The translations under genes were made by a program, and so were the position numbers. A stretch of DNA of 64,000 nucleotides from a virus. Under the pieces are notes generated by a model. The model was not told the DNA's origin and ran no database searches. It was given only the letters and a program-made list of their open reading frames with translations. The stretch covers positions 38,932 through 102,931 of the IMG/VR virus record IMGVR_UViG_3300021964_000026; one strand, written 5' to 3'. Shown piece after piece: positions 15,901 to 59,000 of the stretch. Each line of letters opens with the position of its first letter. Position 1 is the first letter of the stretch.

Positions 15901-18900
15901 CGTATCGCAACACCGTGGCGCGGATAGGCAGATTGTTGCTAAAACGATACTGATACTGTCCAAAGGCTTCGTAGTCGTTAGCGGCGTAGTTGGGCGCACG
16001 ACGACCCACAGGTGATGGGTTCCAAGCCTGTGCTGTCATTGTTGCATCCAAATGCAACTTCATGCTGTTGTCGGGGCCGGGGAACACACCTGCGTCTCGG
16101 TCTTCAAAGAATTGTTGAGGGAAAAGGGGGATTTCAACAAGCGCGCGAGTGCTGGCGTATTGTGTTCCCAACTGATAGTCGTGTTGAACAGAACCAATGG
16201 ACTGAAACAGCCGGTCGTTGACGGTTGTTCCATCCGCGCATATTGAAGAAGTTGCAAACAACGGGTCAAGCAAAACCAATTGACCTTCCTCAATTCTGCT
16301 TTTTGTGACCCAATCGGCAAACGATGCCGCTTCTTGTCCGTTAGCGAGTTTAAATGTCCCTGTTCCATGAACGAGTGTTCCGCTTGTAAAAGTGAAAGCG
16401 GTTCCGGTTTTGCTTGTGTATTCAGCACTTGCACCGTTCTGCAAATAAATACGACCGGTAGCAGGGAAGCAATAAGTCCCCCATGTTGCCAGCGATGTTC
16501 CCGCATTGTTCAATGCTTGAACCGACACGGTTCTCGCGGTGCTGTCCACTTCATTGATTTGCGCGGCACAATCATGACGCGTATTCCATCCGATGCGCGA
16601 TAATGTCGCGGGGTCCCATGTTGGTTTTGTGTTGACAGCACCTTGACCAGCACCACCGAGCGTGACCGAGACGACAGGCGCGCCCGGTTGAATCTCTTTG
16701 ACGATGTGCGAATCGGGACTTCCATCACCGCTATACGCCACAGTTTGGTCGGCGACATCGGACATCATACCCTGCCCCTCCATGATGAGGTAGCGTCCAG
16801 CACCGCTATCGTTGACTTGCATTGATGTGATACGCGCGGTAGATTGAATGTATTCAATGGTAAAGTAGGTGTTATCCGTAAAGTCCACAGTCGCGGGTGT
16901 TGCTCGCGATAACTGCATGGTGCGCTCGCGCTTTGTTGGTTGAACGATAAAGAGGTAGGAGTCGCCCTCTTTGTCGTTGTCAATGATGTCAAACATTTCA
17001 AACGCGCCGCCTTTTTGTGATGCGAACTGTTTGCTTTCTTGATAGTGAGTGGGTGATTCACCTACGGGTGGGTCGCTTGCGCCTCGTTGCATCGGTTGAA
17101 GGTGCAATTTGTGATAGGCTGACGGGTGGACTGTTGTTCCCACACCTTGTGGTGGCTTTCTTGGTTCATCATCGGATGTGCGCGGTGTGTAGTTGCTTGG
17201 GAGGTGCGACTCATCCAATTCATCGTTGTAAGCAATACCGCCTGTGTTGTCTCCGATAAGGTGGTGCGGCTTCATAACAACCTGTGCGTTGCCTACATCG
17301 CTTGAAGAAGCAACAATCACACCACCGGGTGCGTGGATGGTCGCGTTAGCACCAACAGCGTCAGCAATGTGTTCGGCTACGCGTTTTCCGTCAATCAAAG
17401 AACCTCCATCGGGGACAGTCTTGGTGATGAGAAGGGCTGGGTTGCTCAATCCCATTTTGCCGCCGGTGAGGTCAACAGCGTTGTAGTGGATTTCAACATA
17501 ACCAGCGGTGATACCCGACACTTCAAGAAGCGCGACACGAGATTCGGTTTCGGGTGTGAGGTGTGTTTTGTAGGCCGCATCGCTGGTTGAATCAACACCA
17601 ATGCCGCCACCCTTCAACAAAAACGGTTGAATGTCATCAACTGAAATCGCAATGACACCCGACCGCTTTCCATCAAGCGATGACAAACCGTTATCCACCA
17701 CACCGTTTGTTGTTGCTGATGTTCTAACATCCATGATTCGCGCGTTAAACGCTGTGTGTGTCAACGACACTTTGCTGTTAATCGGCATCACCTCTTTCAG
17801 TCCGAGGTATGAGCCAGCGAAGGTCACAAGAACATCATCGGCTATACCGTCAATGGTTCGCGTGATTTCCTGTTCATGGATGGGTGGAAGCATCCGCAAA
17901 AATGGGTGTCCTTCCCTGTGAGTCAATGTGTGTCGTCCTGTGTGGCCTGTCTTGAAGCGTTCAGCGATGGTCCACGATGTCGGCGCAAAACTGTTGGTGT
18001 TGACGGCAAGAGCGCGCGAATACATGAAGCCGTGAAACTCATTCGGGCTTTCATCAATCACCATCGCACCCGTTCGGTCAATTGCTTGACTCCCTGTGCC
18101 GAGCCGTTGAAACGGCTTTCCACTCTCGCTGTCAATCAACAAATCGGAGCGGATGAGAACCATTGCTGAATCGTTAGCGCGATGATAAGTTGCATCGTAT
18201 GCTGTGCGTGAATGAAGCACACCGCGCGAACCTGTGTCGGCTGAAACACCAAAGTCAAGGTGGATGCTGTCAACGGTGATGGTTCCGTTGGTGTTGATTT
18301 GCTTGAGACGAACGCGTTCGGGTGGGCTGTTGTTTTGCACACCTGTGAGAACATCTGTTGCTGTTGGATTGATGAGCAGGTTGAATGGCGTGTGAGCCAC
18401 GCTAATAACCTGCGCTCCCCCGCTATGCGCGGCGTTAGCAACGCGGTAGTTGCCGAGGCTTTCCAGCGTGTAGTTGCTCGCGAGCGTGTCGGACTTACCG
18501 CTTACCGTTTCGTAAAGCGTTTGACAAGCGGTGGCCCCAATGGTGATGGTGGTGTCGCCAGCAGACACATTTGAAGTCGCGTAAAACACAGTTTCGTCAA
18601 CGCTCACCGGCTCTTCAAAACGCCAAAGGCCCAGCGTGCTTGTAGAAAGCATGCATGGTTTAGCGCGCGATTCAATTGTTGAAACATCAGCCTTCCAATG
18701 AACGGATTCAATGTAGCCGCGATACTGACCACCTTCACCACCAATGAACAGGTCTTGGTCGTTGACATTGCATGTGTAGGATTTGTTGAGTTTGTGCGAC
18801 GCCATCAGTTCGCCGTTGACATACAGTTTAACCTGCTGTCCGTTGAACTCACCGGAGATGTGATACAATTCTCGCTGTCCAGCGTTGTAGCCCACATCAT

Positions 18901-19291
18901 TGCTGATGAAGGAACCCGCCGCCGTTGGATAATTGTTCGCGCTTGCGGCGATAGCGGAGGTTTTGTTGGTGAGTTGCACTTTAAACGAAGCGACACCGGG
19001 TGCATCAACGGTCCCCATTCTCAACTCAAACAGCCCTGCTTTGCTGGCAATAACACCACCGCAGTCGGGCGAAACCCAAGCCTCAACCGTGAACTGCTTG
19101 AGTGTTTGATTGTTGGCGTTGGCGAAACGATGGTTGTCGCCGTCTTGAAGAACAGGAGCAGATGAGCGCGCAACGCTACCGTTGAGTTCGCGCTTATGGC
19201 CTGTTTTGACAAAGTTGCCCTGTGGACAAACAACGCTGTCGCTTACGCCGTTGAAAAACAACGCGTGGCTTGACAGACCAATAACCGCCAC
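3962..19291 (-). CDS. Giant tail-associated structural protein (5109 aa) with N-terminal LamG/concanavalin-like domain
   Basis: 15.3 kb ORF. N-terminus LFFNGVSD...FTVEAWV...LYHISGEFNGQQVKLYVNG...LFIGG...YRGYIESV...LGLWRFEE is a LamG fold signature; lies in tail module downstream of tape measure. Confidence 0.8.
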   Translation of the reverse strand: MAVIGLSSHALFFNGVSDSVVCPQGNFVKTGHKRELNGSVARSSAPVLQDGDNHRFANANNQTLKQFTVEAWVSPDCGGVIASKAGLFELRMGTVDAPGVASFKVQLTNKTSAIAASANNYPTAAGSFISNDVGYNAGQRELYHISGEFNGQQVKLYVNGELMASHKLNKSYTCNVNDQDLFIGGEGGQYRGYIESVHWKADVSTIESRAKPCMLSTSTLGLWRFEEPVSVDETVFYATSNVSAGDTTITIGATACQTLYETVSGKSDTLASNYTLESLGNYRVANAAHSGGAQVISVAHTPFNLLINPTATDVLTGVQNNSPPERVRLKQINTNGTITVDSIHLDFGVSADTGSRGVLHSRTAYDATYHRANDSAMVLIRSDLLIDSESGKPFQRLGTGSQAIDRTGAMVIDESPNEFHGFMYSRALAVNTNSFAPTSWTIAERFKTGHTGRHTLTHREGHPFLRMLPPIHEQEITRTIDGIADDVLVTFAGSYLGLKEVMPINSKVSLTHTAFNARIMDVRTSATTNGVVDNGLSSLDGKRSGVIAISVDDIQPFLLKGGGIGVDSTSDAAYKTHLTPETESRVALLEVSGITAGYVEIHYNAVDLTGGKMGLSNPALLITKTVPDGGSLIDGKRVAEHIADAVGANATIHAPGGVIVASSSDVGNAQVVMKPHHLIGDNTGGIAYNDELDESHLPSNYTPRTSDDEPRKPPQGVGTTVHPSAYHKLHLQPMQRGASDPPVGESPTHYQESKQFASQKGGAFEMFDIIDNDKEGDSYLFIVQPTKRERTMQLSRATPATVDFTDNTYFTIEYIQSTARITSMQVNDSGAGRYLIMEGQGMMSDVADQTVAYSGDGSPDSHIVKEIQPGAPVVSVTLGGAGQGAVNTKPTWDPATLSRIGWNTRHDCAAQINEVDSTARTVSVQALNNAGTSLATWGTYCFPATGRIYLQNGASAEYTSKTGTAFTFTSGTLVHGTGTFKLANGQEAASFADWVTKSRIEEGQLVLLDPLFATSSICADGTTVNDRLFQSIGSVQHDYQLGTQYASTRALVEIPLFPQQFFEDRDAGVFPGPDNSMKLHLDATMTAQAWNPSPVGRRAPNYAANDYEAFGQYQYRFSNNLPIRATVLRYDRQGSNRRVYIAEGSGRIPNSNFNAAGTVKGVSTRRARKVVLGNGEWAYYEYAGGSYFSLSGLASHSSPDFFTLLDVGSQITIGVLPNGDGYPLTGDDNYNSSAQEYRRPFYYDRGSVMTQGGNLDYGLRQYVSAVEFKAGPTANPHLSRIQSKGARLKLILLNPLSPSQTFIFEGDLPKGHLPTNYAFAAINEATGRKYQITYNSTTTVREMQVVAHPVLDSTAPSLAAGDTLTVIGIYATSATQLPLKQPDGIANATWNNPYCPGGLRYGDTVWMNMHYTNPHAIEGMFCKSRGVYNEYEVWSGFNGGKGALGVEARDTLPVENFLIGDTCLETARNFVQHVNKTIELNWTELGHSTSAPVVAFLDPYLSTETHARVLLYDVEHDREFIAFHDLHMQVQTSATTPTIEGLDVAAGFKTQDKNKATTSSTHAETINTVVYNLIKDEGKSQFVEGAYAHKSWWLMDESFMSTSNVAATKHNKPKRQTEHTVAFGDETTQFGQGRVAQSTVDVDKAALRHAETIDHDTSEAIIDDSGGHYQFSATFFDTPEGTRVISAFLCLKGKRATNNTIVDARLNQLPHWTDMDFVRRLTIDMGEIGLREGVTDIEAAAREVVRLINQGGALNGRSSQRRPSDQYAGEGERFDINRRAISVGGIDTQEPTDATSAHQHADFAVTGSTHDPAPFWNTRTAFTSFDRGSHMGYLRAHLGRVVEDANGNEGYSIVVHSTVPGATSRNFCAWLDNSKAQAEYKPQFLIGHGGRFRNFYCAPPEIAGENMHPAPMPIDKNGKPFAPITTLREYVALDEDSDEFFTNLHLGYATNFNSAEGFETPNTGTTTGRASNTGAMESFENGGQKFTIREGLQTGSYARARVNFGGIVAAGVPGFAPDAGDWGFGEDGKGAGRFVSSVYGNYLATGDTYFETYNSYVPTTEVNDASVGTQPLYGLKMVDHRGKSHILRYIYRRAGESFSHRNSVMPNTIDEETLIHFDDRDIAQGGFTIGANMWGKGGDGTPFFYTGTTDYNWRGNKWRGVYTPNAGYAVTMDTAMANNQLAIHDASGYGYHNGGIWHHLPDVDDVLGWMGFPDSGLVWLAIPSSRSQYDKVGVVFSYTSRTHNGRGGPHIFGGVEGVEADSMVATWFNSQDKCGPTSVSNTRAPVIISPHLNQTTIVTDELIAAATAFAFTADPNEDDQYFDCSHLRAPDGRTYGEVMGEAAQTAIKITKFNSDKEIIPLNKLFSASLSRDWGLQASSQEHDTISASFSSGGQFGGLGNDVGEGMEEVGYIPYTLLNIATRYKGSNANTATPILIDQTNNAVPTDDWQKHLRGDKYTRYEGDHITPSLEAATYELDPQSGSLAYPSGTAYDTYQIEMRDPHHFAVLGRQYAWQLQHISGGSNLNQDSSTEFGGSTTIDGSWSPFKRMDIDEDTYIHCAALSSIDAPTDVARHLLAWHHDDSKGDFKDSLDTNLILQRFKFVNDIQGLRLRANRKGNPLLYFRGAQDSIDHHVPLYFGGGFSGVVMDINDGSRVDYSTHNKHPYSSGPTGSAGLQDIGEKMGAYALLDTTALFAMFPATVLTNQHRGEATPPFANQDAILNTDIDGNNNTHTIPDTTYTNVNIAQPTPVVLRFAHPYARYTDSTNSVAYMVFGPGQAVPKHWSGESASITTSVEPSAKWTAAFKKYCSLDGAMATTFNQGNESGYFFPNELSNGTLNGAANQFLPPTNAYGANNVFPYETFRHWEPSYGSPNSAFNQTVSTEARYVSSHFFGANSVVQSAANEYGHPFSHYTAVARFPTSHSNFREDKLIFHLDGGYTVGGSWFDNSVRKNPPHPVTATLVNSANASVQYIDRLGLNATMFRVGSQVLTDYDHDLDADVPDDVFLIDATRCQNSEELGAVVAAAINTWPGRSNLKALGGSFLPSFQDAQRQDRYGWIDVGDLGTYTDAGSGGHVSVGTALPMTLPENGWIRVSNGVNSYYGYYSNYDVAQGTFILGANFRNGQNRLEQPSLSGTGDVTSVTGEGHKVFVWSKAGNLRWDNGFQNAVDGSRATGATSSGQMSNSPFDHYASTQVHFNGVVDAIDRTRAVGAVGWHGERYSYLNSLNISNKVAAGLGAWHPMLGFTPYGAATACHNPQSMEWVLRIAEGGELENGDYIWEPKTSTHNAVGMHQRHFVVISYEGDLPIIAKAARNGQQTCGDMLQLKWGGTQGGTITAYHNDRFNNDRYNAESNAGPHVEAMHDTTMTEPTDANPLWTTSAATASQLAQAETCLYPTGDLFFDKTENPNNAHYPNDNLFDSETAKTENTGYDTYSTHRDGIYAHYKGRLAARNFFAEHVVWKRMGGGNLTLPAQNARGLGSMPWQVHKVGSEYIRFGETIYGNVRFSFETTNAAMYPIIQAQELAHPALAEQYPYEVRNALNIPNEEIQFTEIIVVDDTGQQHRLTGGSPLGVVVRDYEMVHDRENEGLAPALAGSGVSPNMRIQLPNHDDIPGNILVRAGFDRLQAYQHETLGGGGLQHPSQPVSGVSQAFESDSDRPRTEPFWEQDGYEHINQNPNNFPDSNNALQSTNILETAYEPHDRALYFHITKMGYTYTEREPLRIVSNAMTLNRLTFKDKGNDYITVNESITADIWKQDPTPDGRYFLSVNGTIASFTNNTTVVIEGVTYHRFTGVVFAPDFTAKEDDAIKPSYYIPAGSTRQFAARRLRDHAEVSGNSPDKAHTDWTSLAAGTSPATLVRAANKLTPMPLPRMGHHYVMPTMAMLPGHLAHPLYQQIYQANRACFGATDYDTTKTIANPLVWFSGTTASNPPSDIHGDGFTLLTETKLRFDGYGVADDSASCNAAGGHRIQLESGTNYNTAFHFPDPAEVGAYQIVIQPNLFSKQFMGNNENTTFASTDAPEDPGGTNTTVRTLTDQLFATVVAMQDRDLILSEATMADVRGCEIYLNEVILDIDPSTREQFTNIPTLGLSNPFGVNATSSGAFTRRSLPYHPNMFHRSTPGHTVTVPWWSAALASSTIFSATAPWKGSQHYHPDDYYLFCRSTLGAVGTQTTMLGYPSHYLDVYTDYLTSLTPTATVEHGDQSNSKLYVRNNNLFPVAGADYYAQHLVIIDDSGVEQTASYEDRGYISGLSASGPVVFNSVTAITSGFWSAAVQGATVRIKSKFNNLGAGEVYNKSQASVATRNLPQLLSGTRDTNSLHLPDAYLCLWHYNLGRPMTWFSDSRTNKGDAAVDKKAYNHAPEHYEMIHYHEFTYAMSDGPFKFRMKSPSNVDGSIADTYSVAALTNQAGIDGKSRKYNLGAFWPGGHRFGAQMSSLSLYGTAAPGWRDKWDDNNIKQVSDAKGLTVANADVETTTDTIQTKATHKQAGWGYRISVRQPYNRPRWSIKANQGLRDPHIYYHFQAEGPFISSQNATTRTNVQNGSANSSTTETTKQNYVGIIERQTNASALIGSDLKFQQVRYSDGRRMTKGFGCAVRNIRNPTTALRKFHADSPTGHRAGTDADDQRVNLALAQAHYMIDWWGNTTGEEVRRFPVRGFGIRPSWDPEDAYRATDRTKVAETMFTDSNLRSAETHIHFFDPATAKRVGDRGDGRGVRYPTYFNEDILQDVSEDMRPFGLVLSHHTSEPPFMSGFLRPSNVQLESHEVARGISAKLELAGDDGLLKREANVGTNVEKSNFTFMQEPIAKSKPRIGIDGMSVVENDGQMSPRYVVASTEANSVHTDRQVGQRFILAGGVSTANRAVDNLNLHTLNLSSAKQVLKFGTTHGIPPLGGTYIMEVSSDGEAISDLNWGASSGVTTNPYQTSNHDSTSYRTNTKDTTIKFLVRPVRVLDNQHIELFRDDTTHVLSATAAGRYGVFVYDTPNARAADAASSYMRNSNPAPSNPPYAPVYLFDLTTSTSDPTSNGPQIPGSEASDFTTLATQPVARMIVTNNTLQHFRGDAARRQSVNEGQDTFVRLDYTVQPRYTQSLYAGDKLNTSNHSSEGDRTDNGVGA

Positions 19292-19292
19292 T

Positions 19293-20456
19293 TCACGACC
19301 CCACTATGAAATCAATTGGCATGAAGGTCAATGAGCCTTCGTAAACATTCTCGCCAGCCATGTAGTTGAACGACATCGCGACAACTGTTCCGGAGATGCC
19401 TGTGAACTTACTTGTCGGGTTGAACTCAACACCGACGGGTTGATTGTTTGCCAACGCGTCTTGTTCGTCAGCATCCGCGCGCCCTGTGACCATGATGAGA
19501 TTGCGTTCGGTGTAGTCATCGGAGGCGGCTGTGCTGGTGATGAGTGAGTTGTAAGGGATTTGGATACCCACGATGTAGTCAGCCGTTTGTTTGTTTAAGA
19601 GACTCGCGTCTGCTTCAAAAATAGGGTCGTCGTCGGGTGTGTTGGCGATGGCTCCCGATGCACCAAGAAGGCTGGCGTTGCCGACATACGCGATGAGGTC
19701 TTGCAACTTATCACCCGCGCTACGGCACGACTTTGCTTGACCGCCAGCGCACACCTCAAACAACGGTGCTTTTGTAGCCAACCCCTTGCTGAAAAACGGT
19801 GTTTCGTTGTTGCCGCCAGCCCCTTTGTCCACTTGAGTGAAAGTGAGTTTTGCGTTGTTGGTCAATTCGCCGTTGCTGGTGGTGATAGTGAACGCGCTAC
19901 TGAAAGTTGTGCCTGTGGTGCTGACTTGTCGCGGGCTAAAGTCGGCGGCTTCACATGCGGTCTTGACAGCCGCCGCCAAGCCATCGTCGGTGGTGATGCC
20001 TTGAATGCCAACGGTCACGGTGGGTGGAACATTGATGTCGCTATGGGACGCTGTGCTACTGTCAAATTGGATTTTGATTGGGTCGCGCGTTGTGTTCTCA
20101 CCGGTGTAGGTTGATTCAATTGAAAAGGATTGACCGTTGAGGTCGCTCAATGAAACCGATGGACTGCTCCCACTCAAGTAGGATTGACGCGTTCCTCCGT
20201 CGCTGTTTGCTAACGCGCTAAAATCAATTGACGCTTTTGCCGCAACCGACTCAAACTCACTCGCCGCGCAATCGTCGTCAGCGAGAATGACATTGATTTT
20301 GAAGTCAGCCGTGACCATGTTGAGGTCAATACCGTAGCGTTCGCCAAGCACAGGCATTGGCATAACAGGAACGCTACGCGTGATGTTCATGCTGTAATCG
20401 GTCGCATCAACGGTCATGATGGTCCCGTCGTTGCGAATCAACCGTATTTTCGTCAA
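19293..20456 (-). CDS. Putative distal tail protein (387 aa)
   Basis: Immediately downstream of tape measure; beta-rich termini typical of tube-fold Dit proteins, with a central insertion. Confidence 0.5.
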   Translation of the reverse strand: MTKIRLIRNDGTIMTVDATDYSMNITRSVPVMPMPVLGERYGIDLNMVTADFKINVILADDDCAASEFESVAAKASIDFSALANSDGGTRQSYLSGSSPSVSLSDLNGQSFSIESTYTGENTTRDPIKIQFDSSTASHSDINVPPTVTVGIQGITTDDGLAAAVKTACEAADFSPRQVSTTGTTFSSAFTITTSNGELTNNAKLTFTQVDKGAGGNNETPFFSKGLATKAPLFEVCAGGQAKSCRSAGDKLQDLIAYVGNASLLGASGAIANTPDDDPIFEADASLLNKQTADYIVGIQIPYNSLITSTAASDDYTERNLIMVTGRADADEQDALANNQPVGVEFNPTSKFTGISGTVVAMSFNYMAGENVYEGSLTFMPIDFIVGS

Positions 20457-22156
20457 ACGCCCGACCTCCTGTTGCCGTGTGAGCGACCGCCGCGAGACAT
20501 TTCAGCGCGAATAAGGTCGCCAATTTCGCGCGCAAGTTGCTTCTTATCGGTGCGGTCGGTCACGCCACCGACATTGATGTTGACCGTCATGCCACCACCA
20601 CCACCCAAACCGATGCCTGTGGGGTTGTTCTTACGGTTGAGAGGCACGACAGCCTCCGGGCCATCCTCACCAACCACCGCAAGCGTAGGGCTGGTCACGA
20701 TGCCGCCTTCCGCGAGCAATGGGATTTTCGGTAAGCCCATTGTGCCGCCACCAAGAATCTCCGGCAGTTCAAACGAAAACTCTTCCGCGAAGTCGTTGTA
20801 AACGCCGATGATGCCGTTGAAAATGTCAAAGAATCCATCCTTTGCGTTGGTCCACATGCGCCCCGGCAATTTCATGAAGTAGTCCAAAAGGCTCTCGCCA
20901 CCATCTATCACATTTTCTTTTAAGGAAGTCAATGGTGTGAGCAACGCGGCAACAAGCCCCCCTACTAAACCAACAACGACTCCGAAACCTGCTGTGAGAA
21001 GTCCGAACGCTAAGCCGAAAATCGCTTTGATAGTTGACGCGATAAAGGTCACAATTTCCGAACCGAGGAACTTGATGAACTCCAACATCCCTGTAAGGAA
21101 GAGTGTGAATGTTTCCCAATTGCGAATAATGAAAGCAATGACGAAAAGAACCGCCGCGGTGATGGCCGCAGGGATAGCCAGCCCTGTTATCAAGAACAAG
21201 CCAACAAAGACAGCAAACGCGCCAAGAACACCAATAAGAACGCCTTTGATACCTTCACCAGCACCCATCGCGTAAGCAACAAGCGCGGCGATGCCACCAA
21301 CAACAAGTCCAACACCAGCGACAATAGCACCAATGGTTCCTTGAATGGCTACTGCGGTTCCAGCCTTAACCGCGGCAACAACTGTTTGAAGCATTAAGAA
21401 AGAACCAATGAGCGTCGCCAACACACCAACTGCGCCTACAACCGCGAGAACCACATTGTCAAACTCCGCGTTGAAAAGACGGTAAGCACCGACGGTGATA
21501 ACAGCCGCACCAGCCAGCAAACCCATAGTTGCTCCAAGTGCGGCTGACGCAATACCCGCAGTCAACAAAGCCGCCGCGAGAACATCAAGCGCGGTTGCCA
21601 ACCCACCCTCATCACCTTCACCTGTGATGACATAGACCAACCCCTGCATCGCATCGTGCAACGGCCCCAAGTCTTCGGTGTATGTAAGAAGCGGACTATT
21701 CGCGCCTTCAAACGCCAGCGATAAAGCGGCAAGCGCGAATCCAACAATGAGGAAAATGCTCACCAGCGAGAATGCCGACACCATGATGCGACGAAAGAGC
21801 GTGTTCTTCTTGTCCAACACCTTGTTGCCGAACTTGACTGCTACACCATGTGCAATGGTTGCCGCGGCCAATTTTTCCATCACGGTCATGTTGGCTTTCA
21901 AATCATCTCGCTGTTTGTCATTGAGGTTGGCAAACAACACGCCGCGTTTGACAACATTCACCATTGATTCAGCAAACCCTTGCAATTGAAGACGGATGGC
22001 GTTGAGTGGTGAGCGTTTTAGCGCGGTCGTGACCTTCTTCTGTTGCTTTTCAAACACGCCCATTTTCTTTGTCGCGTTCATGTTGAAAACGCCAAACTGT
22101 TCAAGCGCGACGGTGAGTTCATCCACTTGGTCTTTCAACTGCTGAATATCACTCAT
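20453..22156 (-). CDS. Tail tape measure protein (567 aa)
   Basis: Long Ala/Gly/Leu-rich helical and hydrophobic repeats; C-terminal IPLLAEGGIVTSPTLAVVGEDGPEAVVPL motif typical of TMPs; follows chaperone pair. Confidence 0.85.
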   Translation of the reverse strand: MSDIQQLKDQVDELTVALEQFGVFNMNATKKMGVFEKQQKKVTTALKRSPLNAIRLQLQGFAESMVNVVKRGVLFANLNDKQRDDLKANMTVMEKLAAATIAHGVAVKFGNKVLDKKNTLFRRIMVSAFSLVSIFLIVGFALAALSLAFEGANSPLLTYTEDLGPLHDAMQGLVYVITGEGDEGGLATALDVLAAALLTAGIASAALGATMGLLAGAAVITVGAYRLFNAEFDNVVLAVVGAVGVLATLIGSFLMLQTVVAAVKAGTAVAIQGTIGAIVAGVGLVVGGIAALVAYAMGAGEGIKGVLIGVLGAFAVFVGLFLITGLAIPAAITAAVLFVIAFIIRNWETFTLFLTGMLEFIKFLGSEIVTFIASTIKAIFGLAFGLLTAGFGVVVGLVGGLVAALLTPLTSLKENVIDGGESLLDYFMKLPGRMWTNAKDGFFDIFNGIIGVYNDFAEEFSFELPEILGGGTMGLPKIPLLAEGGIVTSPTLAVVGEDGPEAVVPLNRKNNPTGIGLGGGGGMTVNINVGGVTDRTDKKQLAREIGDLIRAEMSRGGRSHGNRRSGV

Positions 22157-50530: not shown

Positions 50531-51789
50531 CCAAGACCACCTCGCCTCACATATAGGTCGTAGGGGTGCGCTCCCCAGCGTGTCGCGTCATCATCGGGGT
50601 CAGTCTCCGTCGCACCTGTGGGTGCAGAAGTCAAGCCACCCGACGCGTTATCGGTCGCACCTTCGGTCGCACCCTGCATGGATTTGTCCTCTTTGCGCAT
50701 CATGCGTCGCAACAAATGATTGAGTTGGTCAATGAGTTGACGGTATTCAATACGGTCGCGAGGCGAAATGCGGTTAGTCAGTTTAACACGCTGTGCGCGC
50801 GCTTTCAAGAACTCTTCGGAGGCGAGAATAGCGTCGCTCGCACCAATGCCGCCAGCACCGCCAGCGAGTGATGTCGCTTCGGACATCATTTTTCCACCGG
50901 GTGTTTTCGCTGTGCGCGGTTGCCGAGTAGCCTTTGAGTGTGGTTTGGAGTCGCGAGAGCCACGAGGCGCGCGGACCTTTCTCGCTTCGGGTGTAACAGT
51001 CGGTGTTTGATAAGGGTCGTCCAGCGGTGGTGATTCAAGTGCTGTTTGTTGACGAAAGTCTTGACCTATGCGCTTTTGCGGGTTTGCATAGTTTGAGCGT
51101 GCTTGTGTTTGTGTGGCAGAAGTCAAACGAGGGAACCCGAAGCGATTTGGTTGTTGGTGTCCGTAGAATCCACCGAACGAACGAAACGGTGCTGAACCAG
51201 CCATCATCGGTGTAATTGCGGCTGTTCGTCGTCTTGGGCCAACGCGATATTGCTTACTTTTTTTGCCTTTACCCTTCGTTTGAGTTTCGGTGGTTTCTAT
51301 TTTCCCTTTCTTCCGCCTACCTTTCTTGGCGCGTTGCCTCGCCATCACCGTATCAATGGTGGTGGTTTTCTTCGGTTTTTCATCATCAAACTTCGGTTCG
51401 CGTTTTTTGCGAATCATTTCAAACGCTTCATCAATAAATGGAGCGGTGGACATCAACATGTTCATCCCCATGCCGCTTGCGCGAGGGTTTGCGCCGTCAA
51501 TTGCTTCGCTTTGACCGACCTGCCCTGTGAGTTGGCTCAATTCAGCCTGTTGCTTCACTTGACTGTCTTCTTCGTCATTGGGATTCTTTTGCGGGATTTT
51601 GATTTTCATGTGTTGCAATCCCTGCAATTTATGAGCGCGCTGTTCTTGTTCTTCACGCTTCTTCGCATCGTGTCGTGCGCGCTCATCGGAGTCTTCACGA
51701 CCCACTTGGGAATCACCTTGCAATTCTTCCGCGCTTTCGCGTGGGTTGAAACGCATACCAGCGGTGCTTCCTTCGGGTCCACCGACCAT
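50527..51789 (-). CDS. Basic low-complexity protein (420 aa)
   Basis: K/R-rich core (RQRAKKGRRKKGK); coupled ORF. Confidence 0.75.
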   Translation of the reverse strand: MVGGPEGSTAGMRFNPRESAEELQGDSQVGREDSDERARHDAKKREEQEQRAHKLQGLQHMKIKIPQKNPNDEEDSQVKQQAELSQLTGQVGQSEAIDGANPRASGMGMNMLMSTAPFIDEAFEMIRKKREPKFDDEKPKKTTTIDTVMARQRAKKGRRKKGKIETTETQTKGKGKKSKQYRVGPRRRTAAITPMMAGSAPFRSFGGFYGHQQPNRFGFPRLTSATQTQARSNYANPQKRIGQDFRQQTALESPPLDDPYQTPTVTPEARKVRAPRGSRDSKPHSKATRQPRTAKTPGGKMMSEATSLAGGAGGIGASDAILASEEFLKARAQRVKLTNRISPRDRIEYRQLIDQLNHLLRRMMRKEDKSMQGATEGATDNASGGLTSAPTGATETDPDDDATRWGAHPYDLYVRRGGLG

Positions 51790-52457
51790 CAGTCTTCACC
51801 ACCCATGAGTTTTCCACGAAGTCGCGCCCACACTTCGGGACTCTCTTTCGCCAATTCAACCTTGAGAATGTTGATGGTTTGAGCGTTCATGGTTTCGTTG
51901 GTTGTTCCAGCCGCGCGCTCTTGAACGCGCATGATGTCTTTTACCGTCTCACGCACCTCTTTGTGAAGTGAAACGATGTTGCGCACATATTGAGGGTCGT
52001 TGCGGTCAGCGTCGTCAAGAAAATGTCCCAATTCGCCGTTAATTCGCGATAGGTTGTTGCGCAAAGCATTCATTTCATGCCCTGCTTCAACGATGATAAG
52101 GTCTGCCGCACCCTTTTGCACAACGGGTTTGAGGTGGTGCTTGAGGTGATGATAAATGCTGGATTCGGGCATTTGGATGTCCAAAGCGATTTCTTCGGCG
52201 GTCATTGACGCGTTGAAGTAGGCCATTTCCAACTCTTCGCGCTTAATAGACACACAAAAACCGCATTCGCTGTTGCTCCCCATGTGATATTCGCCCATGT
52301 GGTTGCGAAAATGACGGTCAGCCGTTCCTTCGCGCCAACCTTTGTCTTTGTCCAACTGTTTTGCGATAATGATGCCATGTGTCATCATTTCCTCAAGACC
52401 GTCGCGTTCCGAGTCTTGACAAAACTTGCAAGACGCTCGCGTTATACGCTCCGCCAT
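51789..52457 (-). CDS. Tandem Zn-HTH plus coiled-coil protein; terminase small subunit candidate (222 aa)
   Basis: Two repeats CxxC-(HTH)-HxxxH (CKFC...RHFRNH; CGFC...HHLKHH) followed by oligomerisation-like helices; upstream of terL. Confidence 0.55.
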   Translation of the reverse strand: MAERITRASCKFCQDSERDGLEEMMTHGIIIAKQLDKDKGWREGTADRHFRNHMGEYHMGSNSECGFCVSIKREELEMAYFNASMTAEEIALDIQMPESSIYHHLKHHLKPVVQKGAADLIIVEAGHEMNALRNNLSRINGELGHFLDDADRNDPQYVRNIVSLHKEVRETVKDIMRVQERAAGTTNETMNAQTINILKVELAKESPEVWARLRGKLMGGED

Positions 52458-52494
52458 AGCAAACTCCAAGTAGCCGTAGCAAAAGAGTGTTTCC

Positions 52495-52833
52495 ATGCGA
52501 AAGCGGCTCGGTCGTGCGCCTAAAGTTGCGGGTGTTCCACTCACCGTGGACACAGCGAGAAGCCTTTCGCGGGCGGCATTGGACATCATCGCCAACAACA
52601 AAGCATCATTGAGTGAGCGAGAACGCCGAATGAACATTTGTCGCGCATGTCCCGACCGAAATCACGACCGTTGCGGTCTTTGTGGTTGTTTCATCAAAAC
52701 GAAAACCATTCTCAACAGTAGCGAATGTCCCGTCGGAAAATGGTCAACCCTGTTGACCGAGACGGCGGTAGACGATGCCGGTCGCGCTAAAACAAACGAA
52801 AAGCGCGCCGATAATCCAAGTGAGCGTGTTTGA
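52495..52833 (+). CDS. Cys-rich small viral protein (DUF6171-like)
   Basis: RRMNICRACP...RCGLCGCFIKTKT...CPVGKW is a recurrent phage motif; the only convincing plus-strand gene inside the late region. Confidence 0.7.
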   Translation: MRKRLGRAPKVAGVPLTVDTARSLSRAALDIIANNKASLSERERRMNICRACPDRNHDRCGLCGCFIKTKTILNSSECPVGKWSTLLTETAVDDAGRAKTNEKRADNPSERV

Positions 52834-52977
52834 ATCCATTTTTGGACCGGAAAACACCAACAACATGAAGCAACCCAGCGTTAGCGAGATGAGTTGCACC
52901 ATTATCATGTCAACAACAACGGATTTGCGCAAATTGGTCATATCGCTAACAGCACCAAAGAGTGTAGTCATGTCCAT
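52744..52977 (-). CDS. Small two-TM membrane protein (77 aa), holin-like topology
   Basis: Two hydrophobic segments and basic C-terminus (YRRLGQQG). Confidence 0.65.
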   Translation of the reverse strand: MDMTTLFGAVSDMTNLRKSVVVDMIMVQLISLTLGCFMLLVFSGPKMDSNTLTWIIGALFVCFSATGIVYRRLGQQG

Positions 52978-52981
52978 GTTA

Positions 52982-53554
52982 TCACCGCCCCGTCATCACC
53001 GAGCGAAGGAATGAACCAGCACCTTGACCCACGCTTTGCACCATACCGGGGTCTGCGAGCGCGCTATCCAGCATACCTTGCATAGTTGATTGATTCGCGA
53101 TAGCGACTATTTGCTGGAATTGCATGTTCATTTGCTGAACATTGTTGGAGGCCGCGTTGAGGATTTGCGTTTGGGTCATGGTCACGCTATCACCCGTTGG
53201 CAAACCCTGCACGCCGCTAAAATCAAAGGTAAAACCGTCGTCTGCCTCTTTGATTTTGGCGTTCGCGAGCATTTGATGCACCGAAACCGCGACCACATTG
53301 CTGATGAGGCCGATAAGCATGTTCAAGTTCGCACCGTTGTTGTCCGATAGCCACTTATCAATGAGCGGGTTGGTGGTTATCATCATGGATAGGATGTCCA
53401 TTTCGCTCGGTGGGGGTGGGGGTGCGTAGGGATTGTAGCCGCCACCCGCGCTCATGGTTCCCATTTGAGGCACTTGTTGTTGTCCATTCGGCAATCCGAG
53501 GTTCAACGCACCCGGATTTTGTGCAGGTTGTTGGTTATTTGACCACCATGCCAT
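52982..53554 (-). CDS. Q/N/M-rich protein with poly-Pro stretch (190 aa)
   Basis: GAGGTGG RBS; YAPPPPP; amphipathic helices. Confidence 0.75.
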   Translation of the reverse strand: MAWWSNNQQPAQNPGALNLGLPNGQQQVPQMGTMSAGGGYNPYAPPPPPSEMDILSMMITTNPLIDKWLSDNNGANLNMLIGLISNVVAVSVHQMLANAKIKEADDGFTFDFSGVQGLPTGDSVTMTQTQILNAASNNVQQMNMQFQQIVAIANQSTMQGMLDSALADPGMVQSVGQGAGSFLRSVMTGR

Positions 53555-53563
53555 GATACCACC

Positions 53564-54445
53564 TCACGCGCTACCCTCATTTTGTTGTTGCGGTAGAGGG
53601 AGAGGTGCGCTTTGTTGTTGCATTTGATGCATCGCGAGTGCGTCATGAAGCAGTTTTGTGTTGTTCCCCGCTTGGAATTGACGCATATCAAACACAATCA
53701 TCACCAAATCGTTCATTCCCGTCGCGGAATTGGTGAAATGCGTGATGGGAATGTTGTCTTGTTTCAACATCGCGAAGAATTGTTCGTATTTTGCAAGGAT
53801 TGGCGGCGTATTATCCTTCTTTTTGATGCTGTTGACAGGCACAGCAACGACTGAAACACCCTTTTTCAACTTGGCTTTGAGGGTTCCGCCACTCGCTTCT
53901 TCCTCCGCTTCATCCTCTTTTTCCCATTTTGTAAGCAAATGATACAGGTGAAGGTGTTCCGGGCAGTAAGTTGCGCGCATTCTACGACCGCTTGTGACCT
54001 TTTCTCGCGCTACGAAGGCTTCAATCTCGCCTGTGACCGGGTTTTTGAAGTAAATGTCCCACAGCGATTTACCGTTTTCTTCGTCAATAATTTGCTCGTA
54101 GATGTTGCCAGCCATGCGTAGAAGGTATTCAACATCGCATCCATCCACGCAACAGCGCATTGTGTTGGTGTTGTAGCGATATTTGCCACCCCAAGCGCGT
54201 TTTGGAGAGAAAATAGACCGTTTTGTTGGCGTAAGCAACTTGTAAGCCTGTTTAATGTCCTTTCTACGCGCTTTTTTGAGGTTTGAGTGCTGTGAAGGGA
54301 AGAAATTGACCTGCGGAACCTCAATGTGGTCGCTCGCGTTGGTCATCGCGGCCTGTGCAGAAGCCTGTTGTTGCATCTGCGCGAGGCTCATTTGAGTCTG
54401 TGCGGCAAGCCGCAGTAGGTCGTTTTGGGGTGTATTTCCAAGCAT
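53564..54445 (-). CDS. Putative Zn-binding protein with Q-rich termini (293 aa)
   Basis: CCVDGC...YCPEH; directly downstream of GTPase. Confidence 0.75.
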   Translation of the reverse strand: MLGNTPQNDLLRLAAQTQMSLAQMQQQASAQAAMTNASDHIEVPQVNFFPSQHSNLKKARRKDIKQAYKLLTPTKRSIFSPKRAWGGKYRYNTNTMRCCVDGCDVEYLLRMAGNIYEQIIDEENGKSLWDIYFKNPVTGEIEAFVAREKVTSGRRMRATYCPEHLHLYHLLTKWEKEDEAEEEASGGTLKAKLKKGVSVVAVPVNSIKKKDNTPPILAKYEQFFAMLKQDNIPITHFTNSATGMNDLVMIVFDMRQFQAGNNTKLLHDALAMHQMQQQSAPLPLPQQQNEGSA

Positions 54446-54449
54446 TTTA

Positions 54450-55172
54450 TCACCAACTTAGCATCTCAATCATCGTTTTTTCAACATTCCAGCCAATTTT
54501 CGTCGCCATCATGCTAATGCGACACGGAATACCGGCTTTTTGGAGTCTTCGCATGGCTGGACGGTGTGCGTTGAACACTTTATGCTCTCGCAAACGCCCG
54601 GATTGCCACAAAATGTTCGCATTATCGTCCCACCACTCGTCTGCTTTGTTCGCGACAAGCCAAATCTGCTTCGGAGCGTAGCGTTTTCCCTTCAAACGGG
54701 ACTTCAAAGAGCGATAATTCCACCTTTTTTCAATCAGCGCGTCTACGAGGTATTCAAAACCACCCACAGCGTCAATCACCTGCGCTCCGTTGCCTTTCAA
54801 AACGCGAGTATCGGTCATGAAAATGACGATTTCCACCTGTCGGTCCACCATATCGTCAATCCACAGGTTCCAAAAGCGTTGCTGACCGCCAATATCGGAG
54901 GAATGAACGACTCTTTTCTCACCTTTCCAGCGAACACGCTTGCGCGTTGCCTTCGGAAGCACATATCCGCCTCCTAAAAGCCGTTTCGCGTGCATGGTGC
55001 GCTCTTCAATGTCGTCCATTTCGCCCGGAGTGCGCATAAACAAGTCAAGCGTCGTTTTTCCGACCTGTGTTGGTCCGTAAACGCCGATTCTGCGCGGTTT
55101 GACGAAGTTGTAGAGTTCACGACCGTAAACGACCGCGCCCATCAACGCGCTACCAGCGAATGTTGCGACCAT
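54450..55172 (-). CDS. Arf-like small GTPase with N-terminal hydrophobic helix (240 aa)
   Basis: G1 GPTQVGKTT, G3 DIGGQQRFWNLW, IFMTD, G4 ANKAD, G5-like MATKIG; ATG 55172 in TGATG overlap. Confidence 0.85.
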   Translation of the reverse strand: MVATFAGSALMGAVVYGRELYNFVKPRRIGVYGPTQVGKTTLDLFMRTPGEMDDIEERTMHAKRLLGGGYVLPKATRKRVRWKGEKRVVHSSDIGGQQRFWNLWIDDMVDRQVEIVIFMTDTRVLKGNGAQVIDAVGGFEYLVDALIEKRWNYRSLKSRLKGKRYAPKQIWLVANKADEWWDDNANILWQSGRLREHKVFNAHRPAMRRLQKAGIPCRISMMATKIGWNVEKTMIEMLSW

Positions 55173-55417
55173 CAGCCCACCCAATCACGAACTTTGTTGT
55201 AAAACCACTCAACGGTGTTCTCCCAAATGCTCACATCGGCGGTTGTTTCAAACCAAGAAACACTCAAACCACTCGCGACGCCAACAATGATGCACAAAAT
55301 CAAGGCTCTTCCACGCTCGTAGTAGGTGTCAAGCGTGTTTTGCGTGTGCAAAGCGCGTAGTGTAGCCTCCGTCGCATCATCACCCGGCGTTTTGAAGAGC
55401 CAACCCAACGCTATCAC
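55172..55417 (-). CDS. Small single-TM membrane protein (~78-81 aa)
   Basis: ALILCIIVGVASGLSVSWF segment; coupled on both sides; may start at TTG 55408. Confidence 0.7.
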   Translation of the reverse strand: MIALGWLFKTPGDDATEATLRALHTQNTLDTYYERGRALILCIIVGVASGLSVSWFETTADVSIWENTVEWFYNKVRDWVG

Positions 55418-55935
55418 TCCTTTTTCTTTGCGTATGTGCCGTCAGCGTTCCTTTTGCGCGTGTCGCCACTACCCAAATTGAGTGATTTTTTGGTTTGAGC
55501 CTTGTGTTGCGGAGCATCCGCTTCCACATCACCGTTCATCAACTTGAGGTATTGCTGAACTTCGGGGTCTTCTTCCAACGCTTCAAGTTGTTTCGCGAAG
55601 GCGACCTCCTGTTTTTTGATTTCCATGTCCATTTGCTTCTGCGCAAAGCGCATTTGTTGATTTTGCATCTGCCGCGTCATGTTTCGTTGCATGTTTGAGA
55701 TGACCGCGCGTTGGTCCATGCCGTCTTGTGCCAGCATTTTGTAAATGAAATACGCCATACCCTGCAAAGTGAACGCGCCCATTGTGTAGGTGATGGCGTT
55801 CGTGTAGGTCGTGTCGTCGTAAAGCCACAGTCTCGCGTCAAAAACTGCGATGGCGCACCCGACAAGGATGCTCACAAATGAAATCAGTCCAAGCACGCGT
55901 AATTCGTCTTTGTTTTGGGGGGTTTGCGGTTGCAT
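55414..55935 (-). CDS. Two-TM membrane protein with cytoplasmic coiled coil (173 aa)
   Basis: AAGGAGG RBS before ATG 55935; two TM segments followed by a Q/M/K-rich heptad region. Confidence 0.75.
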   Translation of the reverse strand: MQPQTPQNKDELRVLGLISFVSILVGCAIAVFDARLWLYDDTTYTNAITYTMGAFTLQGMAYFIYKMLAQDGMDQRAVISNMQRNMTRQMQNQQMRFAQKQMDMEIKKQEVAFAKQLEALEEDPEVQQYLKLMNGDVEADAPQHKAQTKKSLNLGSGDTRKRNADGTYAKKKE

Positions 55936-55992
55936 AACAGAATCCTCCTTACTACGCGACATCGCGTGCGCTACATAAGCGTGTTGATTCAC

Positions 55993-56064
55993 CCTTTTAT
56001 TGATATTTTTATATTATCATTATAACAATAATAACTTATTTCTTATTATAAGAAAAATGTGAGA
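55993..56064. promoter_or_regulatory. Extremely AT-rich intergenic spacer (promoter/terminator or unwinding element)
   Basis: ~70 bp almost devoid of G/C in a ~50% GC genome, directly upstream of the GTPase operon. Confidence 0.5.
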
Positions 56065-59000
56065 TTATTGCGAATCCTCTTCACCCGGTCGCTTTGGTCG
56101 CATTGCTTCCGACATCATCGCGTAAGGCTGGTATGGAGGGAATGCCGCCATCCCTTCTCTCAACTCTCGCCCTGCTTGTAGTTGCTGACCGTATGCAGTT
56201 CGTGGGTTTTGCATCATTTCCGGCATATTCGGGTCCACCGTCGGTCGTCGTATATCTCGTCGTATATCCGCCGCCGTTCCCGCAACAGGAGGTTGTTGTG
56301 GTTGTTGTTGCATTATGCCACCAGCCGCACGCACATCTTGTTCAACTTGTTCATACCCCCTTTGCTTCCGAGCCTGTTCAATTTGATTCGCGGCGTAGTC
56401 GTATCCCATCATTGCGTCGTAGTTGTTTGGTCGGAGTGTTGGGTTCGTTTTGACCATCATGGTGAGCGCGTCATCAATCTGCTTCTGTGTTTCGGGAGGC
56501 AACGCACCAACCGCGTGTGCGGCAGTCAACTCACCGTAGTTGGCAATGCCGTCCTTTTTACCCGCTTCACCTTGAAGAATGCGGTCCATCAATTGCTCGT
56601 ATTCGTAGTTTGGTTGTTCGCGGAACTCCGTCATGCGAACCATCATGTCATACGCGTTTTGGTCCGCTTCGGAAATGTTGACCGGGTTGTTAGCGTTGAT
56701 GAGGTCGCGTAGTTTTGTTTCTTCAAATGAGCGCGAAACGACATCTTCTCCATCCTCGTCTTTCGTTGTTTGATACTTCATCACACCCATCGGTAGTCGC
56801 TGAATGTCATCAAAAGCCAAGTTCGCGCGAACCTTGTCTGCGAAATCACGCGGGCTGATTTTTACAACATTGTCGTATTTGTCACGCTGGTCGCCAGCGG
56901 TTTTGTGACCGAGCGGGATGCGGATGTAGGAATTGAGTTTGACGGCTTCGGCTAATTCCTCCGCCGTCTCAAAGTCTTTGTCTTCAATAATTTGCGCCGC
57001 GTAGTCTTCAAGAATGGTTCGCAGGTTTGAGTTTTCTTGAGTCTTCTGCGCGTAGTTGTTGATGTTCAAATCAGCGGGAATGTTGGGGTGGTCAAGTGCA
57101 TTAAGGTGGCCGTTGATGAAGACTTCCATCGCTTTGTGCTTCACGAAGTCTTGAAACAACTCCGTAATTTGCGCGTTGAGGCTTTTGGTGTAATTGTCGT
57201 TGATAGAACGCATTTGTCCCCTTTCGTTCGGTGTTAGGAAGAAGGCATCAGCGTCTTTGATACTTTTCAGTTTACCCTTCGCTTCATCGCTGAAAGTCAA
57301 TTCTGCTTCCGGCATTTCCAACTCCGAATAGGGAGACAAACCAAACTTGGCGCGCAAATCATTCAACTCTTCACTTGCGATACCGATAGCGCGTTTCATC
57401 ATCATTGGTGTTTTCATACGACCAAGCGCGCGTTGCACCTGTTGGGCTGTTTCGGGGTTGAACTCTTGACCTTTCTTCACACGCTTGAACGCCCTCATTG
57501 CCTTCGGCATGTGTCCGAAAATGCGCTCAACATCATCGGTGGTGATGGGGGACGGCTCGTGATTCGCGCCCGGTTCAAACAATCCTTCCTTCAATTCTTT
57601 TGGTGAGAGATGTCGCCCATGAGCAAATGTCAATGGGTTGTAGAAGCGATAACTCATTGGGAGTTTGTTAGCGAAAATGTCCTTGTAGGTGATGTTGAGT
57701 TTGCCCTCATCATCCATTGGCAACACATCCTTCTCACCGAACTTTACTTTCTTCGGTTTACCCGTTGCAGGGTTGATGATTTTTTCACCTGCCAATTGAC
57801 CACGCGTAAAACTCTCTTCTGCGTAAGACTGCAATTCTTGAAGCAAACCTTGCGCGTAGTGGAAATCATCGTTGTGGACATCACGGAAATCGTCAAGCGG
57901 GATGGCCTGTATTTTTGACACCAACTCTTTGAACTCGTCCGCGATTGATTGGTCTTGAGTTGACTGCACATAGCGCAAACCCATCGCGGTGAGTGTTTTG
58001 ATTCGGCTTTCAATTGAACTCTTGATGTGCGCGTGTTGAGCGGCTTCGTGTGTTCCCGTCATCGGTAGGATGCTTCCAACATCCAGCGTTGGTTTCTCTT
58101 CACCGATGTTGATGTCGCCAACATCCAGCGTTGGTTTCTCTTCACCGATGTTGATGTCGCCAACATCCAATTTAGGTTCGGGTTGAGGGATTGGTTTCCA
58201 TTTGCCATCAACCATTGTCAAACGCGTTGAAGCGTCAACGGCGTTTCGTCCTAAACGCCTACGCGCCTCTTCTCGTTTTCGTGCCGCGGCGTCTATTCCG
58301 CGGCTTCGGTCGCTCACGAACTTCTCGCGACCAATGATGTCGCCGTAGATTTGCATAGCGGGTTTGAGTGGTTTCATGTCATACAATTCTCGCACGAAAT
58401 CCGGCATGTCGTCGGATGTCAGCATGCTGGTCTTCATCGCGAGAAGTTGGTTGGCGTAGTCCATCGCCTGTCCAGCCATACTGCTATGCACATAGTGGTG
58501 ATTCTTACCTTCAATCAACTCACCCGTTTCGCGGTCAATGTAGCCTTCAATGGGTGTCGGGTCTGTTGGGTCAATGATACCGCTACCCAAGCAATGCGAA
58601 CAAAGACCATTCGCGCACCTGCCTGTTTGGGAGTGTTCAGCGGTGTGGTCGCAATCCGGACACGCGAGTTGTTCGTGGTCGTGAGGTTCCATCAATTCAG
58701 CATGAGGGTGGTCATCAAACGATTTGGTCCCATGAGGTCGCAGATGTTGCTTCATGTATTTTTTCATCGCGGCTTCGTTGACACCCATTCCTTTCAATTC
58801 GGGAACATGGTGGGACAAGTAGATGGCCGCTTCATCGGGTGTGACATGCCGGTGGCCGAAGCAAGTGCCACACATCGTAGGTGCGTGGTTTTTGAAATTG
58901 CTCAAGAGATTAAACGCGTCATGAAGTCCTTGTTTGATTTTTTCTTCCGAGCCGCGCGTAAAGTGAGAGTTCTGCTCCCGTCGTGCGGCTTCTTCTTCGG

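Follow-up and report, generated by a model that had tools for sequence, protein, structure and literature searches.

The lysis cassettes of tailed phages lie upstream of the terminase in lambda and between head and tail genes in P2. Magroviruses are among the commonest archaeal viruses in the surface ocean, and their marine group II hosts have no peptidoglycan. For archaeal tailed viruses the egress machinery was called 'completely uncharacterized' in a review (PMC10791045). Here we describe a gene cassette in a window of 64,000 nucleotides (nt), the terminal 64 kb of the 102,931-bp IMG/VR record IMGVR_UViG_3300021964_000026 (positions 38,932 to 102,931; estimated completeness 98%). Six co-directional minus-strand open reading frames (ORFs), g1 to g6, are closely packed at 52744-55992 of this window, and one of them, g3, encodes a predicted small GTPase. 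Read from sequence, the six genes appear to form one late-expressed, membrane-associated small-GTPase module, and the cassette is a leading candidate for the means by which these viruses would act on the host membrane or break out through it.

The closest described systems each share part of this arrangement. In Haloferax the ArvA-ArvB-ArvC operon encodes the small GTPase ArvA, which drives vesicle budding together with a Zn-ribbon partner (PMC10927574). Like ArvABC, which acts on the cytoplasmic membrane, the viral cassette combines a small GTPase carrying an N-terminal helix with a protein that has a putative metal-binding site, but it has three or four extra membrane proteins and a Q/N/M-rich protein. 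A search of the entire viral genome, in which the controls scored, did not find OapC/ArvC (PF09845), and DUF2073 was not found in the cassette. With phage holin cassettes it shares small proteins with several transmembrane (TM) segments, the position within the late block and an AT-rich spacer of its own, whereas endolysin, spanin and significant holin-family similarity are missing, and phage lysis cassettes contain nothing that corresponds to the GTPase or to the two large soluble orphan proteins. Giant viruses also encode Ras-superfamily GTPases (mimivirus Rab, PDB 5XC5, Z 14.8), but these Nucleocytoviricota genes are Rab/Ran genes taken over recently from eukaryotes. An initial annotation of this DNA had known of no such system in head-tail viruses, and this agrees with our literature search, in which no paper describing the cassette was found and none of the magrovirus papers searched mentioned a GTPase.

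Identity of the GTPase

Judged from its predicted structure, g3 (54450-55184, minus strand) encodes a structurally intact, very divergent Arf/Sar/SR-beta-like small GTPase. The motifs of the Ras superfamily (TRAFAC) are present in order, with G1 (GPTQVGKTT), the G2 Thr (T63), G3 (DIGGQ followed by RFWNLW, D97-G100) and G4 (NKAD, N179-K180-x-D182). In an alignment of 23 divergent members, reaching down to 24% identity, D97, G100, N179 and K180 do not vary, G1 varies hardly at all, and the switch I Thr and D182 are invariant or nearly so. An AlphaFold (AF2) model built from this alignment has a predicted local distance difference test score (pLDDT) of 89.3 and a predicted template modelling score (pTM) of 0.85 and displays the Ras-like alpha/beta G-domain fold; it supersedes a poor model from a shallow alignment (pLDDT 59). 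A possible alternative start of g3, ATG 55172, shares bases with the g2 stop (TGATG).

Structure comparison places the protein close to several branches of the superfamily. Foldseek against the PDB returned Rab, Ras and Rho G domains (E 1e-9 to 1e-7) with Rab/Ras ranked first, and the nearest viral structures in BFVD (top 50) were all Rab, Ras or Ran of giant eukaryotic viruses, with no prokaryotic-virus protein among them. An exhaustive VIA-align search was headed by Arf6 (Z 17.0 and 16.9), Sar1 (16.5) and SR-beta (16.2, also 14.9) over 160-171 residues; an Asgard Rag-like protein and G-alpha came next at Z 15-15.6, that is within 1-2 Z of the Arf group. The best family-profile match was the Asgard Arf-related protein GerdArfR1 (PDB 8OUN; bioRxiv 10.1101/2024.02.28.582541) with E=3.7e-8, in an alignment that takes in the N-terminal helix, followed by Arl8A/B (~1e-4) and, more weakly, by other Arl/Arf proteins, Rab33 and IFT22. 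Language-model features (ESM Atlas) led, after viral clusters, to bacterial clusters with the Arf family PF00025 in 17-67% of their members. Arf was likewise the commonest weak Pfam match among the 23 aligned proteins (10 members, best E=0.0048), and SRPRB matched weakly in two. The window GTPase itself matched no Pfam family at E<=1 and did not reach the PF00025 gathering score, and single-sequence searches of Pfam, PHROGs, NCBIfam, PADLOC and the PDB found nothing.

Like members of the Arf family (GerdArfR1 in 8OUN/8OUM, Arl8, Arf6/Arf1, Sar1 and SR-beta), the viral protein has a Ras-like G domain that follows an N-terminal hydrophobic or amphipathic helix. Its switch II (DIGGQQRFWNLW in the window protein) has the Arf/Arl pattern DxGGQ...W, with RxxW-type residues behind DxGGQ, and D-x-R past strand 4 and the NKxD form of G4 are also shared. 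Unlike these proteins, it has about 60 additional residues, an invariant basic RKR patch within an extended switch I/interswitch region and a Trp-rich insert after NKAD, and it is encoded by the tailed virus of a non-Asgard archaeon, no cellular homologue having been found in our searches. The N-terminal extension, which is 25-31 residues long and precedes strand 1 in every viral clade (see below), is helical in the model (residues 5-28). In the window clade its first half consists of Gly, Ala, Ser and hydrophobic residues, with a low hydrophobic moment, and resembles a membrane anchor, while the second half is amphipathic, so that this helix is more hydrophobic than in the Arf family and anchor-like as in SR-beta. 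The hydrophobic moment of the second half is 0.25-0.50. In the other clades the helix is amphipathic throughout, with a moment of up to 0.50.

The extra length, the RKR patch, the Trp insert, the variable residue after DxGG and the missed Pfam threshold are the reasons why we do not certify the protein as a member of the Arf family. It rather seems to represent a new, very divergent family that is Arf-like in its working principle. The Arf/Sar1-like small GTPase which the initial annotation had placed at the centre of the cassette is nevertheless borne out by the motifs, the AF2 model, the GerdArfR1 profile match and VIA-align, and structure prediction with Foldseek, which had been proposed as a check, confirmed the Ras-superfamily fold.

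The high rank of SR-beta among the structural matches (Z 16.2 and 14.9) also bears on a role as helper in targeting or insertion, in which the GTPase would be an SR-beta-like receptor anchored in the membrane and g5 a chaperone for hydrophobic segments of viral membrane proteins or of the very hydrophobic tape-measure protein. The weak SRPRB matches in two of the 23 members and one Atlas cluster are in line with this, as are the Met/Gln-rich g5 and its faint match to an STI1 domain (E=0.12). However, matches of the SR-beta type are weak or level with those of Arf/Sar, and no SRX or longin-like partner was identified, so that we consider a targeting helper very improbable.

Conservation of the cassette

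For a census, 80 IMG/VR loci were retrieved with the GTPase and searched by tblastn with the six proteins and their neighbours, which gave all six in one and the same order in every locus whose flank was long enough. By hidden Markov models (HMMs), all six genes are present in unchanged order in 69 of 69 window-clade loci with enough flanking sequence. Conservation in the neighbourhood is highest for the GTPase, at a median identity of 83%; its partners reach 70% (g4), 69% (g2), 58% (g1), 57% (g6) and 56% (g5), and the flanking late genes 54-57%.

Divergent full-length matches to the GTPase profile led to three further clades of marine viral contigs of 90-110 kb, namely P0006-like (4 loci), P0004-like (13 loci) and P0024-like (140 stretches), while searches for related loci from P0007 and P0040 found none. 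In these clades the gene order is TM/coiled-coil protein, small protein of 72-78 aa, GTPase, g4 homologue and a Q/N/M-rich protein of 200-246 aa. With cross-clade HMMs built from window-clade sequences only, g4 was detected beside the GTPase in 4/4 P0006-like, 11/11 P0004-like and 53/60 P0024-like loci; with matches in every clade, it is the partner of the GTPase that could be detected most persistently. The g1 HMM detected its target beside the GTPase in three clades (window, P0006-like and P0004-like), and the g2 slot is occupied by a mostly hydrophobic ORF of 72-78 aa in all four. Equivalents of g5 are present in all four clades by HMM or by position and composition, with an HMM match in the P0004 clade, and g6 was found in the window and P0004 clades only. 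The co-conservation on which the initial annotation had made its proposal depend was therefore retained, with all six genes in 69 of 69 loci and a five-gene core in four clades.

This core, g1-g2-GTPase-g4-g5, spans GTPase identities from ~30% to 95% and keeps its internal order. The cassette lies upstream of the terminase here, but between the genes for the major capsid protein (MCP) and the tail tube in the P0024 clade; in locus L109 (3689-13925), for example, it lacks g6 and has the SU10-type capsid gene on one side and the tail-tube gene on the other. Since the core has this second location, its five genes change place together inside the late block, and this joint relocation is the strongest available evidence for one functional module.

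The P0024 position is a frequent place of completion or ejection proteins, and the cassette is always found within the structural block. Both observations would fit a role in the virion or in entry, with the proteins being packaged, completing tail or head, or forming or regulating the channel for genome delivery into the next host. Against this, a membrane-anchored G protein would be without precedent in tailed virions, the cassette shifts its position between clades though the structural gene order is otherwise kept, and the hydrophobic N-terminal anchors suggest insertion into the membrane of the producing cell. We therefore regard a virion or entry role as improbable. Another explanation would be host take-over or superinfection exclusion, in which the module changes envelope, transport or division signalling or bars competing viruses. 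While the membrane location and a G-protein switch would suit signalling, the cassette lies in the late structural block and not among early genes, and strict conservation of five genes over distant clades fits a core step of the life cycle better than an accessory one, which leaves this explanation with no more than an outside chance. A defence or anti-defence system was rejected, since a PADLOC scan gave no match to a defence family for the cassette; for host take-over this negative is neutral.

A GTPase-profile search of 1.84 billion representative proteins gave only 86 matches, none of which looks like a typical cellular GTPase (the library carries no names). A scan of 185,579 species genomes gave a single match, the 16-kb contig NZQM01000026.1 (L088) of a metagenome-assembled genome of 'Parvibaculum sp.'. 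This contig from an alphaproteobacterial bin holds the complete six-gene cassette and is for this reason probably viral, a mis-binned magrovirus fragment. The sequences point to an ancient, virus-specific GTPase family with its own conserved partners in Caudoviricetes-type archaeal viruses. Arf-like GTPases with a predicted N-terminal membrane helix and dedicated partners exist, by this reading, in viruses of non-Asgard archaea, and the viral family matters for the question of where Arf-type membrane switches arose and how they spread. If true, the family would be an independent line of Arf-like membrane switches that is carried by viruses, beyond Asgard archaea and eukaryotes.

The partner proteins

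Transmembrane segments were called from hydropathy, and the coiled coil of g1 was judged from composition. Four or five of the six products are predicted in this way to be membrane-associated; none of the cassette proteins matched a Pfam family, and profiles of g1, g4 and g5 gave no significant match to PDB sequences. The membrane protein g1 (ORF 55414-55992, minus strand) probably starts downstream of the listed codon at ATG 55935, seven bases past AAGGAGG, which gives 173 aa. It has a strong TM segment at 33-51, a weaker conserved hydrophobic stretch at ~64-87 (TYxMxxFxxQG), a long Q/M/E/K-rich helical region that is coiled-coil-like and a conserved basic C-terminal tail. Of the two TM segments and the coiled coil proposed previously, one segment and the coiled-coil-like region hold, the second segment being only the weaker stretch. 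For g2 (ORF 55172-55417, minus strand), a start at TTG 55408, downstream of the listed codon, is probable because it gives the N-terminus MGWLFKTP of the relatives. The resulting protein of ~78 aa has a highly conserved cytoplasmic N-terminus of 35 residues (MGWLFKTPSDDATEATLRALH) and, as annotated before, one TM segment.

The orphan Cys/His protein g4 (53564-54445, minus strand; 293 aa) begins with a basic helix (KARRKDIKQA). Residues invariant across four clades include C98, C161, G102, G153, G196, P203 and D230; a second Cys follows 1-5 residues past C98 (C99/C103), and H164 is present in 12 of 13 aligned sequences. C98, C99/C103, C161 and H164 probably form a C-C-C-H metal site. A divergent homologue, L085:7714-8487, is without the second Cys and the His (QCVVTGVD, TYCPQALQ), while its clade-mate L082 retains both; some lineages may therefore do without the site. 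The g4 profile matched 631 metagenome clusters, and among the 120 matches listed there was no name beyond 'hypothetical protein' and no Pfam domain; an ESM Atlas search gave no usable match. The role of GTPase-activating protein (GAP) that the initial annotation had suggested for a neighbour of the GTPase is not supported for g4: it is without the CxxC-x16-CxxC finger of ArfGAP (PF01412) and gave no Pfam match to this family. The receptor/GEF and coat-like roles suggested for neighbours likewise found no support.

The protein g5 (52982-53554, minus strand; 190 aa) contains 10.5% Q, 9.5% N, 10% G, 7.9% M and 6.8% P, and has a single borderline hydrophobic helix in the centre and a conserved Gly-rich C-terminus with a terminal Arg. 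Because the helix is charged in relatives, it is considered amphipathic rather than TM, in agreement with the amphipathic Q/N/Pro-rich protein first described. The N-termini of g2 (55408) and g5 (53554) have a common pattern, M-(G/A/V)-(W/L)-(L/W/F)-F, with examples such as MGWLF, MGLFG, MGWFS and MVWPF. The pattern is present in each of the four clades (including L085, L091 and L109), and both proteins might use it as a shared peptide for docking or for dipping into the membrane. The last gene, g6 (52744-52977, minus strand), encodes 77 aa with two TM segments, a conserved KSVIVDMIMVQ including a conserved Asp in TM1, YRR near the C-terminus and a weakly charged C-terminal end (YRRLGQQG). Its earlier description as holin-like holds for size and two-TM topology, but not for similarity to holin families, the best PHROG holin match having E=0.055.

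Possible function

Lysis genes were sought among 28 late proteins. No match to a lysis-category PHROG was found among them, no endolysin was found in the late block of the genome, and the cassette is the sole cluster of predicted membrane proteins in the set. This supports the earlier statement that recognisable lysis genes are lacking elsewhere in the late region. A GTPase-gated egress device is favoured because of the membrane-associated products, a switch of the type that links nucleotide state to membrane insertion, positions like those of lysis cassettes and the lack of any other lysis match. The absence of host peptidoglycan, the uncharacterized egress of archaeal tailed viruses and the ArvA-driven budding in Haloferax also enter into it.

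We propose that the GTPase would sit on the cytoplasmic face of the host membrane via its N-terminal helix, alongside g1 and g2, while g4 would set or read its nucleotide state. This state would time the perturbation of the membrane by g5 and g6, with g1 and g2 taking part. The likeliest outcome would be a timed membrane disruption which frees virions from a host without peptidoglycan, the GTPase gate being a substitute for the holin clock. We place GTPase-controlled membrane disruption or egress first and hold it as a possibility rather than an expectation. The complete form of the proposal, in which an Arf-type GTPase owned by the virus is anchored in the host membrane with g1 and g2, is regulated by g4 and times membrane rupture by g5/g6, and in which the cassette constitutes the missing lysis or egress machine, is more doubtful still.

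Several observations weigh against an egress device. The residue after DxGG varies across the family (Q, E, D, H, A or F). No Arg is invariant in the four-clade alignment of g4, and a GAP label for this protein is therefore unsupported. No member of the cassette resembles a characterised lysis protein, g6 matching PHROG holins with E=0.055 only, and g6 was not found in two of the four clades by HMM search. A tblastn search of INPHARED phage records, a collection expected to hold haloarchaeal tailed viruses, gave no match to the GTPase, and the device would therefore be at best a lineage-specific solution. Finally, the late timing of the cassette is read from gene position.

Ranked next after the egress device is a non-lytic remodelling of the host membrane, in which the Arf-like GTPase and its partners would bend or bud the membrane into a platform for replication or assembly or into vesicles, and would not rupture it. 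The Arf/Sar-type fold and the N-terminal helix of the GTPase speak for such a role, as does the precedent of ArvA and its Zn-ribbon partner, which make vesicles in Euryarchaeota (PMC10927574), with g1 (a coiled-coil membrane protein) and g5 (of low complexity) as possible scaffold-like parts. However, searches with the cassette proteins detected neither a coat-like fold nor a known effector domain, and OapC, the DUF2073 of ArvB and other Pfam families were not found there. Moreover, internal membranes are of no known use to tailed viruses, and magrovirus reads occur chiefly in the free-virus size fraction (PMC5434244). Remodelling appears rather unlikely on this balance, and less so than the other alternatives discussed above. 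The cassette is a concrete gene set, conserved in at least four viral clades, that is open to expression and assay. If the egress device is real, a G-protein-gated alternative to the holin clock would operate in globally abundant archaeal tailed viruses.

Boundaries of the cassette and genome context

An AT-rich intergenic spacer (55936-56064, minus strand) separates g1 from a 2310-aa gene and is a candidate promoter and leader with the AAGGAGG ribosome-binding site. The non-coding stretch begins at ~55936 or 55993, depending on the g1 start, and the stop of the 2310-aa gene is at 56065. When the 60-nt window of lowest GC ahead of g1 is taken from each of 68 related loci, the median GC is 0.20, compared with 0.37 in an equal window inside g4 and 0.46 over whole loci. 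Junctions within the cassette have median gaps of 0-9 nt, except for g3 to g4 (49 nt), where start calls vary, while the gap from g6 to g7 has a median of 224 nt. The tight run of six genes behind its own AT-rich spacer, as first annotated, is in keeping with the ORF layout and with these spacer statistics.

On the other side, a plus-strand gene for a small Cys-rich DUF6171 protein (52495-52833; Pfam, 29.1 bits, E=1.3e-6, above the curated threshold) is convergent to g6 and covers its last 90 nt in this genome. It was absent from the initial annotation, is kept in 80/80 related loci and, together with the spacer, bounds the cassette. It is the sole plus-strand gene among those checked in this part of the late block. 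Since the DUF6171 gene lies over the listed N-terminus of g7 (51789-52637, minus strand; 282 aa), this ORF is listed too long; by its relatives g7 probably has ~222 aa and starts near 52457 (MAERITRASCKFC). It has weak helix-turn-helix matches and CxxC motifs, and its role may be that of a regulator or of a small-terminase-like protein. A g7 homologue (MAGRQTRKNCPFCQHPERD...) also comes after the cassette in the P0004 clade, and in L109 a small SAP-domain protein (E=4e-10) is encoded directly upstream of the cassette.

A layout of ~100 kb with a replicative block of family-B DNA polymerase (PolB), SNF2 and thermosome genes and an HK97-type structural block characterises the group A magroviruses of marine group II archaea (PMC5434244). 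The present genome agrees in size and in both blocks. Its left third, on the plus strand, encodes PolB, two SNF2-type helicases and a thermosome-type chaperonin (Cpn60_TCP1, E=2e-116), and the right two-thirds, on the minus strand, encode terminase, portal, prohead protease, SU10-type capsid protein, tail tube and tape-measure protein. From this gene content the virus is assigned to the tailed Magrovirales as group-A-like. A 567-aa protein with ~10 hydrophobic segments (20453-22156, minus strand) was considered as a second membrane module and rejected, because it matches tape-measure PHROGs with E down to 6e-7; its gene adjoins a giant ORF of 5109 aa (3962-19291). The 2310-aa gene contains the peptide (EEKPT)LDVGDINIG in three tandem copies (58060-58170, minus strand).

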